A stretch of 64,000 nt of DNA, taken from assembly GCA_964650315.1 (NCBI GenBank), contig CAZYQE010000002.1, positions 3,534 through 67,533 of the forward strand. The letters run 5' to 3'. The stretch comes from an uncultured Muribaculaceae bacterium. GTDB taxonomy: Bacteria; Bacillota_I; Bacilli_A; RF39; UBA660. Made by a program: the position numbers and the translations under genes. Positions 32,837-41,111 of the stretch are shown piece by piece (the stretch's first letter is position 1; each line of letters opens with the position of its first letter). The notes beneath the pieces were generated by a model. The model was not told the DNA's origin. It made no database searches and saw nothing but the letters and a program-made list of their open reading frames with translations.

Positions 32837-33256
32837 ATGAAAGAAAAATGCATAAATTCCAAGGACATAAAAAAAAGAGAATTAAAACTTGCCAAAGAGG
32901 AATATAAAAACTTAACTAAGTTTGTTGATATTGAACTTGATAGAGGAGTAGCCCTAGCTGCTAAACATTACACTGGATTAGGAATTAGTTATATATGTTC
33001 TGGTTCAGGAATAACATATGGTATAGCATCTGGACATCCAGAAGTAATGATTGCTTCAGGTTCTATATTTGCATTAACTCTTGTTTCTACAGGCATTGAA
33101 ATTTTTGGTGGGCCTAGAAAAGAAAGGCAAGAATATCTAAAACCTATCAAAAAAGCTAAAAAAGAATACAAAAAAATGTATAAGACTAAGAAACATGAAA
33201 TAGAAGCAAATTATTTAGAAAATAAAGCTAAAGAAAAAATATTAATAAAAAAATAA
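32837..33256 (+). CDS. Lys-rich protein with Gly-rich hydrophobic hairpin, first half of a tandem duplication
   Basis: 139-aa ORF with a GGAG RBS. The central segment GLGISYICSGSGITYGIASGHPEVMIASGSIFALTLVSTGIEIFGG is flanked by K/E-rich helices. Confidence 0.6.
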   Translation: MKEKCINSKDIKKRELKLAKEEYKNLTKFVDIELDRGVALAAKHYTGLGISYICSGSGITYGIASGHPEVMIASGSIFALTLVSTGIEIFGGPRKERQEYLKPIKKAKKEYKKMYKTKKHEIEANYLENKAKEKILIKK

Positions 33257-33565
<309 letters not shown>

Positions 33566-34887: not shown

Positions 34888-37074
34888 ATGAAGAAATATA
34901 TAAAGGGTAAGTATAGAAAAAGTATTTATGAAAATGATAATGGATATAAAATAGGTCTATTTAAAGTAGTAGAAACTAATCATGAAGATGTAGAAGATTA
35001 TCTAGATAGAATCATTACTTTTACAGGTTATTTCCATGAACTTAATGATATGGATACATATATGTTTTATGGTGATTTAGTAAATCATCCTAAGTATGGA
35101 GAACAATTTAATGTAGAAAGTTATGATAGAGTAAAACCAGATGAAAAAGAAAGTATAATAGAATTTCTAACTAGTGGACTATTTAAAGGTATTGGAGAAA
35201 AGAAAGCTAAAAAGATATATGATACTCTAGGTAAAGATACTTTTAATATTATATTAAATAATCCAAATAATTTATTATTAATCCCAACTATTACACAGAA
35301 GAATGTAGATACACTACATAATAAATTAAAGGAATATGAATCTAGTTATGAAATAATTATTTATTTAAATGAATTAGGTTTTAATACTAAAGATTCTATG
35401 AGTATATATAACTATTATAAAAATGATACTAAAAGTATTATAGAAAAGGATATTTATAGATTAGTTAAAGATATAAATGAGTTAAGTTTTAAAAAAATAG
35501 ATTATATTGCATTACAAAGTGGTATTAAAAAACTAGATATTATTAGAGTAAAAGCTTCTATATTATATTTAATGAATGAAATATCTAATTTATATGGACA
35601 TAGTTATATATTTAAAGATGAAATTATTAATACACTTCCTAGAGTTCTTTTAGAACGTATTGAAGATTATTTAGTTAATGATGCATTAATTTCTTTAGAG
35701 AAAAACTTAGATATAGTTAAAGTTAATGATAAGTATTATTTAAGGGATATGTATGATTCTGAAGTATTAATTTCTAAAAGAATAAAAGTATTAAATAATA
35801 AAGAATTAATAAAAGTTAATAATATTAATGATGAAATAAAATTATTAGAAAAAGATTTAAATATTAAATATAATACTGATCAAATAAAAGCGATTAAAGA
35901 AAGTATAAAAAATAATTTTTTAATTATTACTGGAGGTCCAGGTACAGGTAAAACTACTATTATGAAGGCAGTAGTAGAGTTATATAGAAATATTAATAAA
36001 TTAAGTTATAAGAATTTATTAGAAGATATTGCATTACTTGCCCCTACAGGTAGAGCAGCTAAAAGAATGAGTGAAGCAACAAATACACCTGCATCTACTA
36101 TCCATAGATTTTTAAAATGGAATAAAGAAACAAATAAATACCAAGTAAATGAATATAATAAAAGTAAAGTAAAATTAGTTATTATAGATGAATCTTCTAT
36201 GATAGATACATATTTATTTGCTAATCTATTAAAAGGAATTTCTAGTAGTTGTAGAATAATTATGGTAGGAGATTATTTCCAATTACCATCAGTTGGACCA
36301 GGACAATTATTACATGATTTAATTACTAGTGATATTTTAAATGTAGTAGAATTAAAAAAGTTATATAGACAAGAAAAAGATTCAGATATATTAAGTTTAG
36401 CTTATGATATTAGAAATGGTGAATTAAATAAAAGTATTTTAAATAAAAATAGTGATCTTACTTTTATAGAATGTTCTAATGATGAAGTAATGTCTAATAT
36501 TATAGAAATATCTAATACATATAAAGACTTATCTTATAAAGATTTTCAAATATTAGCGCCTATGTATAAAACTATTAATGGTATAGATAATATTAATATG
36601 AATTTACAAAAACTATATAATAAAAAATCTAATTCTAAAAAAGAAATTATTATTGGAGAGACAATATACAGAGAAGGAGATAAAGTAATAGAACTTTCTA
36701 ATATGCCTGATGAAAATATATATAATGGTGATATTGGTATTATTAATTTAATAAAGAATAAACCTAAAAAAGAAATATATATAGATTTTGATGATAATAT
36801 AGTTAAATTTACTCCAGCAAACTTTAATAAATTTAAACTAGCATATTCTATATCTATACATAAAGCTCAAGGTAGTGAATTTGATGTAGTAGTTATTCCG
36901 TTAGTTAGAAACTTTAATAAAATGCTATATAGAAAACTTATATATACTGCAGTTACTAGATGTAAAAAGAATTTATATTTAGTTGGAGATATAAATGCTT
37001 TAAATATAGCGATTAATAATAATTCTAGTGAAATTAGAAGAACTACTATTAAAGATTTATTAATTAATGAATAA
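34888..37074 (+). CDS. recD2: RecD2-type ATP-dependent DNA helicase
   Basis: 728 aa. Walker A GGPGTGKTT, motif II IIDESSM, MVGDYFQLPSVGPG, and C-terminal SIHKAQGSEFD..V. Confidence 0.9.
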   Translation: MKKYIKGKYRKSIYENDNGYKIGLFKVVETNHEDVEDYLDRIITFTGYFHELNDMDTYMFYGDLVNHPKYGEQFNVESYDRVKPDEKESIIEFLTSGLFKGIGEKKAKKIYDTLGKDTFNIILNNPNNLLLIPTITQKNVDTLHNKLKEYESSYEIIIYLNELGFNTKDSMSIYNYYKNDTKSIIEKDIYRLVKDINELSFKKIDYIALQSGIKKLDIIRVKASILYLMNEISNLYGHSYIFKDEIINTLPRVLLERIEDYLVNDALISLEKNLDIVKVNDKYYLRDMYDSEVLISKRIKVLNNKELIKVNNINDEIKLLEKDLNIKYNTDQIKAIKESIKNNFLIITGGPGTGKTTIMKAVVELYRNINKLSYKNLLEDIALLAPTGRAAKRMSEATNTPASTIHRFLKWNKETNKYQVNEYNKSKVKLVIIDESSMIDTYLFANLLKGISSSCRIIMVGDYFQLPSVGPGQLLHDLITSDILNVVELKKLYRQEKDSDILSLAYDIRNGELNKSILNKNSDLTFIECSNDEVMSNIIEISNTYKDLSYKDFQILAPMYKTINGIDNINMNLQKLYNKKSNSKKEIIIGETIYREGDKVIELSNMPDENIYNGDIGIINLIKNKPKKEIYIDFDDNIVKFTPANFNKFKLAYSISIHKAQGSEFDVVVIPLVRNFNKMLYRKLIYTAVTRCKKNLYLVGDINALNIAINNNSSEIRRTTIKDLLINE

Positions 37075-37114
37075 AAACAAATATAATTACCATACTAATT
37101 TTAGAGGTGATTAT

Positions 37115-37282
37115 ATGAAAAAGAAAACTAAAAATAAAATGATGTGGGCTGCTATTCTAGGAGGTATGGGAGTAGCAGGTTATATGTATATGAAAAAGAA
37201 TCCTGAAGCTATTGATAATATGAAAGAAATGGCTAAGGATATGGCAAAAACTACATATAATAAGTTAGAAGATGTAAACTAG
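37115..37282 (+). CDS. small YtxH-like membrane-associated protein
   Basis: ATG at 37115 after AGAGGTG. Protein is MKKKTKNKMMWAAILGGMGVAGYMYMKKNPEAIDNMKEMAKDMAKTTYNKLEDVN. Confidence 0.55.
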   Translation: MKKKTKNKMMWAAILGGMGVAGYMYMKKNPEAIDNMKEMAKDMAKTTYNKLEDVN

Positions 37283-37303
37283 AGAACAAAGTTCTCTTTT
37301 TCT
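37281..37303 (+). terminator. intrinsic terminator isolating the downstream operon
   Basis: AGAGAAC-AAA-GTTCTCT followed by a TTTTTCTTT run. Confidence 0.7.
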
Positions 37304-37314
37304 TTACATATAAA

Positions 37315-37344
37315 TTGACTTGTATATTGTTTTTAAGATATAAT
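37315..37344 (+). promoter_or_regulatory. sigma-A-type promoter of the SipW/fibre operon
   Basis: TTGACT at 37315-20, 18-nt spacer, TATAAT at 37339-44. AAGGAGG RBS at 37358-64 precedes the ATG at 37374. Confidence 0.55.
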
Positions 37345-37373: not shown

Positions 37374-37913
37374 ATGCAAAAGAAATCAAAAACATATTTA
37401 ATAGTAGTAACAATATTAATATTAATTGTTGGAATTAGTATTGGATATGCAGCGTTGTCTGCTACACTAAATATTTCAGGAAGAACTGCAATTAAAAAAG
37501 CAGCTTGGGATATACATTTTACAAATTTAAATGTTAAAGAAGGAAGTGTAAGTGAGATTTCACCTACTGTAATTAGTGATTCTAAAACTGATATTAGTTA
37601 TAGTGTTAATCTTGCTAAACCAGGAGATTATTATGAATTTACTGTCGATGTAGTAAATGCTGGTTCTATACCTGCTAAAGTAGCAGCTTCTCCAACTTTA
37701 TCTGGATTAACAGATGCACAAAAACAATATATAACTTATACAGTTACATATGATGATGGAACTGTCATAGCAGAAGGAGATAGATTAGGAGCAGATCATA
37801 CTAAAACTGTAAAAGTTAGAGTAGAATTTAAAAAAGATATTACAGCTGATAAGTTACCATCTGCAGATCAAGATTTAAACCTAACATTTGCTATGAATTT
37901 TGTACAAGAATAA
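37374..37913 (+). CDS. secreted beta-rich protein with SipW-cognate-like signal peptide (TasA/BsaA-like candidate fibre subunit, paralogue 1)
   Basis: The N-terminus MQKKSKTYLIVVTILILIVGISIGYA|ALSATLNISG resembles the TasA-class signal (GTxA|xF.D). The mature part alternates beta-strand-like segments and contains KPGDYYEFTVDVVNAGSIPAKV. It is paralogous to 40548-41111. Confidence 0.6.
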   Translation: MQKKSKTYLIVVTILILIVGISIGYAALSATLNISGRTAIKKAAWDIHFTNLNVKEGSVSEISPTVISDSKTDISYSVNLAKPGDYYEFTVDVVNAGSIPAKVAASPTLSGLTDAQKQYITYTVTYDDGTVIAEGDRLGADHTKTVKVRVEFKKDITADKLPSADQDLNLTFAMNFVQE

Positions 37914-37945
37914 TATAAAACAAACATATAAGTATAGGAGCTAAA

Positions 37946-39094
37946 ATGAATAATAATAGGGTTATAAAAAATTTTGTTTGTGTTTCATTATTTATAATCT
38001 ATATATTCTTATATAGATTATTTATCGTGACTAAACTATTAAAATATACTGAATTTATTACAGCTTCTTTTATGCTTATAATGACTTTTATTGCTATATT
38101 ATTTTATGGTTATAGAAAAGATAAAATTAATCCATTAAAAAAGAATGTATATATAATTACTATTATTCAGATACTATTCTTTTTTGCCATATCCTATGGT
38201 CTAGGATTAGTAGTAGGATTTTTAAAAAATTCTTATTCTTTAACACCATTTTCGATACTAAATAATATATTTGCACCTATAATAATTCTAGTTTGTATAG
38301 AAATATTTAGGTATGTTGTACTTAATAATAATTCTAGTAGTAAAAAAAGCATATATTTAATTACATTAGTATTAATTGCTTTTGAATTATCAATTAGCAT
38401 TAATACAATTAATACAGTTAACTTTGCAGAAATATTTAAATTAGTAACTGCAATAGTTATACCAATAATTATAAAAAACTGTGTATTTAGTTATTTAACA
38501 TTACATGTAGGATATAGACCTGCATTAATGTATAGATTAGTTATTGATTTACATGTATTTGTTATTCCTATAATTCCTAATCTTGGAGAATATTTAAATT
38601 CTATGATTGGTATTGTATTTCCGTTTATATTATACTTATATACATCTAGAATAATAAATGAACATTACAACGGAATAGAATTTGAGGTAAAGAAATCACC
38701 GTTTAGATTAATTGATATTCCAATAATAACTTTTATAGTTATATTTATAGGTTTAGTATCAGGAATTTTACCATACTATTTAGTGGGTATTGCTACTGGT
38801 TCTATGACTCCTAAGATAAATAAAGGTGATGCAGTATTTGTACATAAGATAAAAAAAGATAAAGATATTAAAATAGGAGATATCATTGTTTATAATGATG
38901 AAGGAAGAAATATAGTACATAGATTAGTAAAGATTGAAAAAAAGAAGAAAAAACGTTATTATATAACTAAGGGTGATGCTAATAATACGGTTGATGATGT
39001 AGATATAAATTTAAAGGATATAAAGGGTGTTGTAATATTTAAAATACCTGCTATAGCTTATCCAAGTATATTTTTAGAGGAAAAACTAAGATAG
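37946..39094 (+). CDS. SipW-type (S26B, Ser/His) signal peptidase I fused to an N-terminal ~8-TM domain
   Basis: The C-terminal ~110 aa contain GIATGSMTPKINKGDAVFV (catalytic Ser box), IVHRLVKI (His box) and ITKGDANNTVDD, as in SipW/Sec11-type peptidases. Residues 1-250 form about 8 additional hydrophobic helices. Confidence 0.75.
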   Translation: MNNNRVIKNFVCVSLFIIYIFLYRLFIVTKLLKYTEFITASFMLIMTFIAILFYGYRKDKINPLKKNVYIITIIQILFFFAISYGLGLVVGFLKNSYSLTPFSILNNIFAPIIILVCIEIFRYVVLNNNSSSKKSIYLITLVLIAFELSISINTINTVNFAEIFKLVTAIVIPIIIKNCVFSYLTLHVGYRPALMYRLVIDLHVFVIPIIPNLGEYLNSMIGIVFPFILYLYTSRIINEHYNGIEFEVKKSPFRLIDIPIITFIVIFIGLVSGILPYYLVGIATGSMTPKINKGDAVFVHKIKKDKDIKIGDIIVYNDEGRNIVHRLVKIEKKKKKRYYITKGDANNTVDDVDINLKDIKGVVIFKIPAIAYPSIFLEEKLR

Positions 39095-39105
39095 AGGTGT
39101 TATTT

Positions 39106-39609
39106 ATGAGAAAAGGAACTAAATCAATTATATTACTATTACTATTATTTATAACAATAAGTAGTTCAATAGTGTTATATATGGCAGAATTATATGAATA
39201 TTTAATAATAGATATATCAGTATTATTAATAGTGTTGGTACTATTACTTTTACACATATTTAAGAAAACTGATGATTTTTCTATATATAATAGTAATCTA
39301 AAGAAAATGTTAAAAAGATATGATACTATTTTAGTAGAAACTAGTACTATACCTGATTTAGATGGCAAAAATGTAATGATAATTACTAATATTGAAGATT
39401 TAATAGATGCATCAGTAGAAATTAGAAAACCAATTTACTATAAAAAAGAAAAGACTTATTGTAATTTCATACTATTAGATAATCAAGATGTTAGTATATA
39501 TTTATTAAAATTATATGATAGAGAAACACCTATTGAAAAGTTTATTAAAGATAAAAAACAAAATATGGAAGATTTAATTGATAAAGCAAAAGGTTTAAGG
39601 ACAAGATAA
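39106..39609 (+). CDS. two-TM protein with cytoplasmic alpha/beta domain, unknown function (operon member)
   Basis: ATG at 39106 after AGAGGTG (track start GTG 39097). Protein begins MRKGTKSIILLLLLFITISSSIVLYMAELYEYLIIDISVLLIVLVLLLLHIF, followed by a soluble domain of about 110 aa. It is tightly packed against the peptidase gene. Confidence 0.55.
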   Translation: MRKGTKSIILLLLLFITISSSIVLYMAELYEYLIIDISVLLIVLVLLLLHIFKKTDDFSIYNSNLKKMLKRYDTILVETSTIPDLDGKNVMIITNIEDLIDASVEIRKPIYYKKEKTYCNFILLDNQDVSIYLLKLYDRETPIEKFIKDKKQNMEDLIDKAKGLRTR

Positions 39610-39628
39610 ATGTATAGGGGGTAATCCT

Positions 39629-40534
39629 ATGAGTAGATTTAGCAAAACTACTATTTATGGAATAGCAATCCTAATAACTATAGTATTTATAGGCGTTGGA
39701 TATGCTTTTTTAAGTAGTGATTTAAGTTTAAATGGCCTTGTTAGTGTTAAAAAACATGAAAAAGATGAAGAAGAAAGTAAGATAGTATGTAAAAGAGCAG
39801 AAAATCTTCATGAAGAAATATGTAATAGTGAAGATGGTAATGGTTGTAAAGCTGTGGGATATAATGCTGGGGATAAAATTACATACGGATCTTTAGGTAC
39901 TAAAGGAACATTTAAAGCAGGAGATGCTTTTGATTGTGATGTTAATGGTGATAAAGAGTATAATCCATCAACAGAAAGATTTTATTATATTAGTGATTTA
40001 AATACAGATAATAATTATGCAGTATTAATATATTACAATAATATATCTAATGGAGTTCCAACTAATAATGCATCTTACGCTTATGATAAGAGTAATAAAC
40101 CTAGAACAAATGGTCTTATTACTGCTTTACCTCAATTAATATCTACTAGTACTTGGTCTAATATATCATTATCTAGTACAACTAGAAAATTAACAGATGA
40201 GAAAGGCACAGAATATATGGATTTTAATTATGAAGGGCGTGTTACTAGATTACCAACTTATAATGAAATAGTTAATGCCTGTGGAAGTGGTAATATAACT
40301 GCAAAAAATTATTTAAACAATTGTATATATTTAGCAGAAAATACTAAATATACAGATAATTCATTGCTATATGGTTATTGGTTAGAAAATCTTTCTGCAT
40401 CGTATGCTTCTCAAGTATGGCGTGTTAGTGGATATGATCGTAATTTGAATGTACGTAATGCAAATAGTGTAGGAGCAAAAGGTTATGCAGTAAGACCTGT
40501 AATAGAGGTTAAAAAGTCAGAAATATCATATTGA
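39629..40534 (+). CDS. secreted Cys-rich 301-aa protein with the same SipW-cognate-like signal (candidate accessory/adhesive subunit)
   Basis: The N-terminus MSRFSKTTIYGIAILITIVFIGVGYA|FLSSDLSLNG matches the other two substrates. The mature part has 8 Cys. Its C-terminal module is GYWLENLSAS...VWRVSGYDRNLNVRNANSVGAKGYAVRPVIEV. Confidence 0.6.
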   Translation: MSRFSKTTIYGIAILITIVFIGVGYAFLSSDLSLNGLVSVKKHEKDEEESKIVCKRAENLHEEICNSEDGNGCKAVGYNAGDKITYGSLGTKGTFKAGDAFDCDVNGDKEYNPSTERFYYISDLNTDNNYAVLIYYNNISNGVPTNNASYAYDKSNKPRTNGLITALPQLISTSTWSNISLSSTTRKLTDEKGTEYMDFNYEGRVTRLPTYNEIVNACGSGNITAKNYLNNCIYLAENTKYTDNSLLYGYWLENLSASYASQVWRVSGYDRNLNVRNANSVGAKGYAVRPVIEVKKSEISY

Positions 40535-40547
40535 AGGAGATATTAAT

Positions 40548-41111
40548 ATGTCAAAAGTAAGAAGAAAGAGTTTAATTGGTACAAGTAAACATTCTATATT
40601 TTTAGTTATATTATTCTTTATGGCTATTTTTATTGGAGTAGGTTACTCTTATTTAAATAGCGCTCTATCAGTAAATGGTATGACTAAAATATCAAAGAAT
40701 ACATGGAATGTTCATTTTGATAATATACTTGTAAAAGAAGGCAGTATACCTGATGGACATGTTACTATTACTAATGATGAATCAACAATTATTAATTTCC
40801 AAGTACCATTACAAAAACCGGGTGATTTTTATGAATTTAGTGTTGATGTAGTAAATAGTGGTACAATAGATGCTAAAATAGGAAGTATTATTAATACTGG
40901 TCTAACTGAAGATCAAAAAAAATACTTAGATTATACCGTTTTTTATGAAAATGGTTCTCAAATAAAAGAAAATGATCTATTAAAATCAAATAAAGATTCT
41001 AAAATAGTAATTAAAGTTAAATATAGAGATGATATTACAGAAAGTAATCTACCTACTGAAGATCAAAATATCAATTTAACATTTAATATTAATTATATAC
41101 AAGCTGATTAA
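40548..41111 (+). CDS. secreted beta-rich protein with SipW-cognate-like signal peptide (paralogue 2)
   Basis: N-terminus ...IFLVILFFMAIFIGVGYS|YLNSALSVNG. The mature region aligns with 37374-37913 along its full length (W.VHF.N..VKEGS, KPGD.YEF.VDVVN.G.I.AK, GLT..QK.Y..YTV.Y, DIT...LP..DQ..NLTF). Identity is roughly 40-50% by eye. Confidence 0.6.
   Translation: MSKVRRKSLIGTSKHSIFLVILFFMAIFIGVGYSYLNSALSVNGMTKISKNTWNVHFDNILVKEGSIPDGHVTITNDESTIINFQVPLQKPGDFYEFSVDVVNSGTIDAKIGSIINTGLTEDQKKYLDYTVFYENGSQIKENDLLKSNKDSKIVIKVKYRDDITESNLPTEDQNINLTFNINYIQAD

Follow-up and report, generated by a model that had tools for sequence, protein, structure and literature searches.

Fusion of a Sec11/SipW-type signal peptidase with an unclassified eight-helix domain, encoded in an operon for AbpX-like fibres of gut Bacilli

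Fibres of the TasA/AbpX type hold the biofilms of single-membrane bacteria and archaea together, and the subunits of this superfamily polymerise by donor-strand complementation. To our knowledge, it is not understood how these subunits are handed over from the membrane to the growing fibre. An open reading frame at positions 37946..39094 on the forward strand of contig stretch CAZYQE010000002.1 (64 kb analysed as a whole and called the window in the following) touches on this problem. An initial annotation had described its product as a signal peptidase devoted to fibre subunits which carries a large additional membrane part, raising the questions of whether this is one protein at all and what a peptidase might use the extra helices for. 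As set out below, the reading frame encodes a single conserved polypeptide, in which a Sec11/SipW-type peptidase stands behind an unclassified eight-helix domain.

Architecture and integrity of the fusion protein

The reading frame starts with an ATG codon with an AGGAG sequence sited 8 nt upstream and codes for 382 amino acids (aa). Hydropathy analysis indicated eight hydrophobic helices at about aa 10–28, 37–55, 67–92, 104–126, 136–154, 163–181, 192–210, and 219–237, followed by a ninth at aa 258–276, which represents the anchor of the peptidase. An AlphaFold2 model of the full-length protein, based on an alignment of 101 homologues (mean pLDDT 82.9, pTM 0.70), contained helices at aa 3–30, 32–54, 63–90, 101–128, 133–151, 160–188, 191–206, 214–241, and 257–272, in agreement with the hydropathy analysis, and a beta-rich domain C-terminal to them. 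Both methods thus confirm the initial annotation, which had placed about eight extra transmembrane helices in front of an S26B peptidase. Altogether, nine membrane helices are clear and a short further helix lies at the C-terminus (aa 372–381), and the coding sequence is divided into the following parts:

37946..38701, forward strand: eight-helix membrane domain with no family assigned (aa 1–252), from hydropathy and AlphaFold2 models
38300..38311, forward strand: codons for Glu119-Ile-Phe-Arg122 in helix 4, the E-x-x-R-[YF] signature motif, from conservation in 137 representatives
38717..38773, forward strand: membrane anchor helix of the peptidase itself (aa 258–276), from hydropathy and AlphaFold2; the TIGR02228 match begins at aa 260
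38774..39094, forward strand: S26B signal peptidase I catalytic domain (aa 277–382) ending in the short C-terminal helix, from Pfam, TIGR02228, and Foldseek

Helix 8 and the anchor are connected by a predicted cytoplasmic linker (aa 238–257). Judged from where the catalytic domain lies and how positive charges are distributed, the protein should start in the cytoplasm, where all even-numbered loops, including this linker, should be found as well.

The C-terminal part matched TIGR02228, the model for archaeal/eukaryal-type signal peptidase I, over aa 260–380 with 83.1 bits (cut-off 51.85, E 1.8e-23), and the Pfam S24/S26 matches exceeded their cut-offs as well. The catalytic boxes were identified as ATGSMTP with Ser286 (codon 38801–38803), IVHRLV with His325 (38918–38920), and TKGDANNTVDD with Asp344 (38975–38977) and Asp350 (38993–38995). 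All four residues are invariant across the 101 homologues, their spacings of 39, 19, and 6 residues are Sec11-like, and the catalytic pair is Ser-His as in S26B enzymes, not Ser-Lys as in S26A enzymes. The S26B boxes with catalytic Ser and His that had been read from the sequence at first sight are therefore present and intact, and judged from these residues, the peptidase is a catalytically intact S26B enzyme. Foldseek returned human SEC11C and SEC11A as the best structural matches (7p2q and 7p2p, E 2.7e-4 and 6.4e-4, respectively) and also matched the SipA/LepA-like pilus assembly protein of Streptococcus pyogenes (PDB 4n31, E 5.9e-3), while a search against viral structures yielded S24/S26 and LexA-type matches only.

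SipW of Bacillus subtilis has a size of about 190 aa. The Bacillus SipW equivalog model NF046067 was matched with 52.5 bits, compared to a cut-off of 190, and covered at model positions 29–136 of 189; therefore, the enzyme is S26B/SipW-like but no SipW orthologue. In addition, the C-terminal membrane helix typical of SipW and Sec11 is reduced to the short helix at aa 372–381, because the TIGR02228 match ends at position 136 of the 158 positions of the model. Of the earlier label "SipW-type", the S26B/SipW-like part holds, whereas orthology to SipW does not.

We also considered whether the long reading frame might be a mis-join of two genes. When 5.8 billion proteins were searched, at least 120 homologues with lengths of 316–390 aa (almost all about 380 aa) were listed, which covered 93–100% of the query at 42–79% identity; the named ones among them carried the label 'signal peptidase I'. 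A profile of the N-terminal domain (aa 1–252) was used for an exhaustive HMMER search, in which 1,230 clusters (50% identity) reached E ≤ 1e-3 and 718 reached E ≤ 1e-10. Of the 150 best matches to this profile, nearly all were 370–390 aa long, and an S26 domain was present in 119 of 137 diverse representatives of the N-terminal domain. No in-frame ATG, GTG, or TTG codon occurs between aa 221 and 279 of the window protein. A mis-joined gene, which the initial annotation had named as the finding that would overturn it, is thus refuted by more than 100 full-length homologues and by the missing start codon at the junction.

Shorter matches to the N-terminal domain were mostly fragments or located on low-coverage contigs. 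As candidates for stand-alone genes of this domain, P0212 and P0267 were rejected as fragments of full-length cluster members, and P0198 and P0256 were set aside as probably broken genes on low-coverage contigs. In three independent samples, however, the fusion is split (L015:2738-3875; also L016 and L017): a 247-aa eight-helix protein adjoins a complete SipW-like protein of 143 aa, with the two halves overlapping in different frames at an A-run, a GAGGA-ATG start of its own for the second gene, and a gene for a DUF5305 protein following next. A similar split is present at L018:3287-4383. The split at the A-run in L015–L017 looks like a derived state, and the four cases could represent either a fixed frameshift or slippage-dependent expression. 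Because the halves stay adjacent and are followed by the DUF5305 gene even where the fusion is broken, we conclude that domain and peptidase work together. The split versions would also suit the idea that an assembly or sequencing error has joined two genes in the window, but we give this practically no credence in view of hundreds of independent full-length homologues, the absence of a start codon at the junction, and the derived appearance of the L015–L017 split.

One stand-alone eight-helix protein was found in three samples, namely P0255 with 235 aa (L010:1982-2689; also L011 and L012). It has kept the E-x-x-R motif and is encoded beside a spore-coat Coat_F gene and a gene for a protein with a copper-amine-oxidase N-domain, with no peptidase gene nearby. 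Because P0255 is a singleton in the database and all its relatives are fusions, a separate family of stand-alone N-terminal domains was rejected. The question of whether the extension ever occurs as a separate gene can therefore be answered with yes, but rarely, either as a split upstream of the peptidase (L015–L018) or once by itself (P0255). Based on the full-length homologues and the adjacency of the split parts, the fusion is the normal state. In one homologue, P0228 (812 aa), the peptidase domain is followed by about 430 additional residues, which contain a GNHEFD motif and resemble a 5'-nucleotidase or metallophosphatase; the three parts may be genuinely fused, or the extension may be an artefact of gene calling.

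Conservation and classification of the eight-helix domain

The eight-helix domain is unclassified. Searches with the single sequence, with a profile, and member by member gave no match to Pfam, NCBIfam, or PDB sequences, apart from a chance match of the profile to the PDB sequence of AlgM1 (E 1.4). A model of the domain alone (aa 1–252; pLDDT 81, pTM 0.80) was compared with the PDB by Foldseek, where the best match of any kind showed an E value of 2.2 and the TM-scores were at most 0.25. An internal duplication of four plus four helices was rejected, since hhalign of the two halves gave a probability of 0.5%.

Conservation was surveyed in 137 representatives, which are 25–45% identical to the window protein. 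Glu119 in helix 4 was present in all of them and is the sole invariant residue of the whole protein, and Arg122, located one turn after this membrane-buried glutamate, was present in 136. Gly87, Gly91, Pro208, Pro211, and Pro226 were conserved in more than 93% of the representatives, and Asp/Glu147 (helix 5), Lys/Arg177 and Asn178 (helix 6), as well as Arg197 and Glu/Asp201 (helix 7), in 70–85%, while no conserved His, Cys, or Ser was detected in the domain. Conservation is concentrated on membrane-embedded charged residues and two outer loops. From the helix positions, the conserved charged residues would sit in the cytoplasmic half of the membrane, and the loops GFLKNxYS (between helices 3 and 4) and PIxPxLGxY (between helices 7 and 8) would lie on the outer face, on the same side as the active site of the peptidase. 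This conserved eight-helix domain with one invariant buried glutamate is attached to a widespread peptidase (1,230 clusters or more at 50% identity), and the fusion is found in abundant gut Bacilli and in Saccharibacteria. Because current annotation says only 'signal peptidase I', the domain deserves its own family model.

The full invariance of Glu119 and near-invariance of Arg122, together with the additional conserved charges within helices 5–7, are features expected of a second enzyme that uses the buried glutamate, which would provide the protein with two active sites; the occurrence of the domain as a separate polypeptide (P0255, L015–L018) fits as well. Such an enzyme could be an intramembrane protease clearing or re-cutting the signal peptide after cleavage, or a transferase modifying the subunit. 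However, there is no invariant acidic residue apart from Glu119 and no invariant His, Cys, or Ser, so the known chemistries of intramembrane proteases do not fit, and no enzyme family was matched either by sequence or by fold. On balance, we regard a second enzyme as possible but unlikely. A bolder version, which we consider rather improbable, is a new intramembrane machine with a buried Glu-Arg pair, either a glutamic peptidase or an insertase-like groove, that carries out a second step coupled to cleavage. If true, this step would be either the removal of the signal peptide or the handing of the freed donor strand to the growing fibre, and the protein would represent a two-site enzyme for the processing and assembly of TasA-type fibres in Bacillota and Saccharibacteria, and possibly in archaea.

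A buried glutamate with a nearby arginine among eight helices also recalls the CPBP/Rce1 superfamily of type II CAAX proteases, whose EExxxR motif is loosely similar to the Glu-x-x-Arg of helix 4. With the full-length model, Foldseek indeed reported a weak match to Rce1 of M. maripaludis (4cad; E 0.18, probability 0.95, target-normalised TM-score 0.49), and the CPBP family PF02517 was matched by one of 21 members with E 0.2. However, the Rce1 match disappeared when the domain-only model was used, and PF02517 was not among the top-listed families for the 137 members, none of which showed a repeated match to it; neither the sequence nor the fold similarity was thus reproducible. Of the His and Asn motifs of Rce1, neither FxxxH nor HxxxN is present and no His is conserved, and Arg follows Glu at a spacing of +3, whereas the second Glu of EExxxR precedes Arg by 4 positions. 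The topology is opposite too, since the termini of Rce1 are on the non-cytoplasmic side (PMC5874806) and this domain is predicted to start in the cytoplasm. No CPBP-like reading frame was found in the window or the related loci, and a PDB search with a synthetic CPBP consensus gave no match. A degenerate member of the CPBP/Rce1 superfamily is therefore very improbable, and the relationship was rejected on the grounds of profiles, motifs, domain-only fold, and topology. This bears out the earlier remark that convincing CPBP/Abi motifs are missing: only the E-x-x-R is present, with a different spacing and without a conserved His.

An operon for AbpX-like fibre subunits

Five tightly packed genes, of which the second encodes the peptidase, occupy positions 37374–41111 and are separated by gaps of 32, 2, 19, and 13 nt. 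They constitute an operon for three AbpX-like (TasA-superfamily) subunits, the peptidase, and a DUF5305 protein, with the following features in addition to the peptidase gene:

37281..37297, forward strand: terminator-like hairpin ending the upstream gene, taken as the 5' boundary of the operon (consensus scan, pattern match only)
37315..37344, forward strand: promoter-like site TTGACT-18-TATAAT with 11 of 12 matches before the first fibre-subunit gene (pattern match only, with a frequency no higher than in shuffled sequence)
37374..37913, forward strand: gene 1, AbpX-like fibre subunit of 179 aa (hhalign of profile A7 to AbpX)
39097..39609, forward strand: gene 3, DUF5305 protein of 170 aa with two membrane helices (PF17231)
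39629..40534, forward strand: gene 4, protein of 301 aa with an AbpX-type signal and the junction GVGYA/FLSSDLSLNG (A7 profile, E 1.2e-7)
40548..41111, forward strand: gene 5, second AbpX-like subunit of 187 aa (A7 profile, E 1.1e-72)

The product of gene 1 shows a Lys-rich start, a long hydrophobic stretch, the junction GYA/ALSATLNISG, and then a beta-sandwich region. Genes 1 and 5 are paralogues with about 40% identity, and the gene 4 product has a similar N-terminus. Among 16 relatives from the window and related loci, we consistently observed the Lys-rich start, an approximately 18-residue hydrophobic stretch, and an invariant G-Y, followed by [AS]-x-L-x-x-x-L-x-I-x-G...W-[DNS]-[IV]-H-F, which corresponds to a junction consensus of GYA/xLSxxLxIxG in the AbpX-like proteins. 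The profile of this family (A7) was aligned by hhalign with AbpX of Pyrodictium abyssi, taken from the supplement of a preprint (Sleutel et al., January 2026, bioRxiv 10.64898/2026.01.04.697558), with a probability of 88.9% and E 2.4e-6 over 150 columns, pairing GISIGYA/ALSATLNIS with IGLTYA/QWSETLSLS of P. abyssi. Because of this alignment, the cleavage site was placed after GYA, and ALSATLNISG is the likely donor strand. Camelysin/TasA models of Pfam gave weak matches in three of the 16 relatives, and the AbpX-like profile found nothing significant among PDB sequences and only weak beta-sandwich and camelysin matches in Pfam and NCBIfam. The predicted mature gene 1 protein has a pI of 4.98 with 13% Asp+Glu, and the predicted mature AbpX-like proteins are acidic (pI 4.7–5.0, 13–14% Asp+Glu), as also described for AbpX homologues (10.64898/2026.01.04.697558). 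By profile similarity and junction, these neighbouring genes are assigned to the AbpX/TasA superfamily.

The gene 4 protein is a candidate for a minor, tip, or adhesin subunit. It contains six Cys residues and a large insertion without a family match, and its counterparts in related loci have 416–458 aa. The DUF5305 protein encoded by gene 3 matched PF17231 with 34.1 bits (cut-off 29) at model positions 126–211 of 217. It is a short form of 170 aa, with relatives elsewhere having 191–358 aa. The outer beta-sandwich domain described for DUF5305 in the preprint appears to be missing in this lineage, and by analogy to the DUF5305 architecture given there, the soluble C-terminal part should be in the cytoplasm. 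DUF5305 has been proposed as an accessory subunit of signal peptidase (10.64898/2026.01.04.697558).

The same arrangement was recovered from nine related genome loci, which were retrieved with a 6-sequence alignment and carry record titles such as 'Bacilli bacterium', 'Clostridium sp. CAG:417', 'uncultured Tenericutes', and 'Erysipelotrichaceae', several of them from animal or human gut samples. A DUF5305 homologue directly follows the peptidase in eight of the nine, the ninth (L007) ending at a contig edge before this position. The order AbpX-like gene, peptidase, DUF5305 gene is present in seven, often with larger AbpX-like proteins next; the exceptions are L007 and L009, which shows no AbpX-like gene upstream. 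Beyond these loci, an AbpX-like gene, a fusion peptidase, and a downstream membrane protein are found in this order at L019:2139-4480. The L019 peptidase falls into a cluster with a 'Candidatus Nanosyncoccaceae' protein (Saccharibacteria), so that the system extends beyond Bacillota. A gene for a GGDEF diguanylate cyclase comes after the fusion peptidase in a Clostridiales assembly (L020:1493-2932, a contig too short for the full order), which agrees with the reported link of bacterial abpX loci to c-di-GMP enzymes (10.64898/2026.01.04.697558). An outward search from the Clostridiales member yielded one further relative only.

Within the 64-kb window, 37946..39094 is the sole S26B gene. Because it lies inside an operon with AbpX-like and DUF5305 genes, we regard its product as the enzyme dedicated to subunit processing in a surface-fibre system; the earlier description as a peptidase dedicated to fibre subunits is reasonable given the flanking AbpX-like genes. 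The composition of the operon also bears on the idea that the eight-helix domain is a membrane platform, which anchors the fibre base or nucleates polymerisation and replaces the TapA, LPXTG, or SLH anchors of other TasA/AbpX loci. No sortase, LPXTG, or SLH protein was found in the window operon, whereas bacterial abpX loci often encode LPXTG/SLH-type anchors (10.64898/2026.01.04.697558), and the conserved outer loops could hold a subunit. However, the most strongly conserved residues would lie in the membrane half that faces the cytoplasm rather than on the outer face, and the larger AbpX-like proteins of the operon are equally good candidates for an anchor or tip. We therefore consider a platform function quite improbable.

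Possible role of the domain and comparison with known systems

As the preferred reading, to which we assign about even chances, we propose that the eight-helix domain serves the S26B enzyme as a built-in accessory subunit, to which cognate signal peptides dock for cleavage. The precursors would enter the membrane via Sec and stay anchored there by their long hydrophobic signal segment. The domain, in a role like that of the non-catalytic subunits of the eukaryotic signal peptidase complex but fused to the enzyme, would bind the signal segment of the cognate subunits along a conserved path through the membrane. On the cytoplasmic side, this path would consist of a polar cluster of Glu119/Arg122 (helix 4), Lys177/Asn178 (helix 6), and Arg197/Asp201 (helix 7), and on the outer side of the conserved loops GFLKNxYS and PIxPxLGxY. 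Docking would present the GYA/ALS junction to Ser286/His325 and limit cleavage to fibre subunits at a fixed site, and cleavage would then free the N-terminal donor strand ALSATLNISG for insertion into the next subunit. DUF5305 may be a further partner in the same complex. We favour docking because the conserved residues line both membrane faces, the split parts stay together, and no known protease chemistry fits.

Several points weigh against this proposal. We infer the contact of the domain with the signal peptide, and the clustering of the conserved residues was judged from the positions of the helices. A catalytic or an ion-coupled site could equally well be built on an invariant buried Glu with an Arg close by. 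Moreover, SipW with its two helices (helix count according to 10.64898/2026.01.04.697558) processes TasA, which has a very similar signal peptide. Because SipW cleaves a very similar junction without the extra helices, catalysis as such does not require the module. Finally, the comparison with the ten-helix peptidases of archaea and clostridia was made from their published description. With Glu119 and the domain, there is now a concrete target for experiments on cleavage, substrate choice, and assembly.

These ten-helix peptidases also affect the novelty of the architecture, which the initial annotation had overstated. Signal peptidases associated with AbpX have already been noted to possess ten helices, in one sentence and with no function given (10.64898/2026.01.04.697558). 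The published examples, among them WP_338249487.1 (P. abyssi), A0A2R7Y7S8 (Zestosphaera), and A0A1M6GRN4 (C. amylolyticum), come from Thermoproteota, Clostridia-type Bacillota, and Chloroflexota, and the preprint provides no motifs, family definition, or conserved residues for the extra helices (10.64898/2026.01.04.697558). Our literature search found no other paper mentioning them. By this description, both are many-helix TIGR02228-type peptidases encoded beside AbpX-like subunits and DUF5305, and the window protein likewise has about ten helices around its TIGR02228 domain. It differs in coming from low-GC gut Bacilli and in having nine clear helices plus a short tenth one, which is marginal. 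We therefore regard it as a member, from low-GC gut Bacilli, of a class which has been noticed but little studied, the architecture itself being no longer new.

Compared to the tapA-sipW-tasA system of B. subtilis, the window operon likewise combines an S26B Ser-His peptidase with TasA-family subunits. The TasA junction of B. subtilis, TWA/AFND, resembles the GYA/ALSA found here. In contrast, SipW has two helices and TapA as a neighbour, whereas the window protein carries eight extra helices and a reduced C-terminal helix and is neighboured by DUF5305. The SipA/LepA-like protein of S. pyogenes (4n31) is another protein with a signal peptidase fold that is devoted to the assembly of surface fibres. 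SipA is devoid of catalytic residues and acts as a chaperone, whereas the window protein has kept the Ser, His, and Asp residues.

The closest catalytic fold is that of the eukaryotic signal peptidase complex (SEC11A/C with SPCS1-3; 7p2q, 7p2p), in which non-catalytic membrane subunits also surround an S26B enzyme. These accessory subunits are separate small proteins with one or two helices each, whereas here the additional membrane part and the enzyme form a single polypeptide, and we know of no detectable similarity between SPCS subunits and the eight-helix domain. DUF5305 itself has been likened to the accessory subunits of the eukaryotic complex (10.64898/2026.01.04.697558). Haloarchaeal tafi loci encode the peptidase TafD and the DUF5305 protein TafG, and deletion of tafD blocks subunit processing and abolishes the fibres (PMC11821415). 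As in the window, a dedicated S26 peptidase is thus paired with DUF5305 and donor-strand fibre subunits, but TafD has four helices, an additional C-terminal outer domain, and Tat substrates, and lacks an eight-helix N-terminal domain (PMC11821415).

Further small genes were observed in the window. At 37067–37282, a gene for a small membrane protein of 71 aa overlaps the end of a 728-aa helicase-like gene; the protein has no family assignment and is 80% identical to one at the same position in L001. At 32837–33565, there are two small reading frames (139 and 59 aa) whose products consist of Gly-rich hydrophobic cores and very Lys/Glu-rich tails, one of them with a EIKEIKEIKEKKK repeat.

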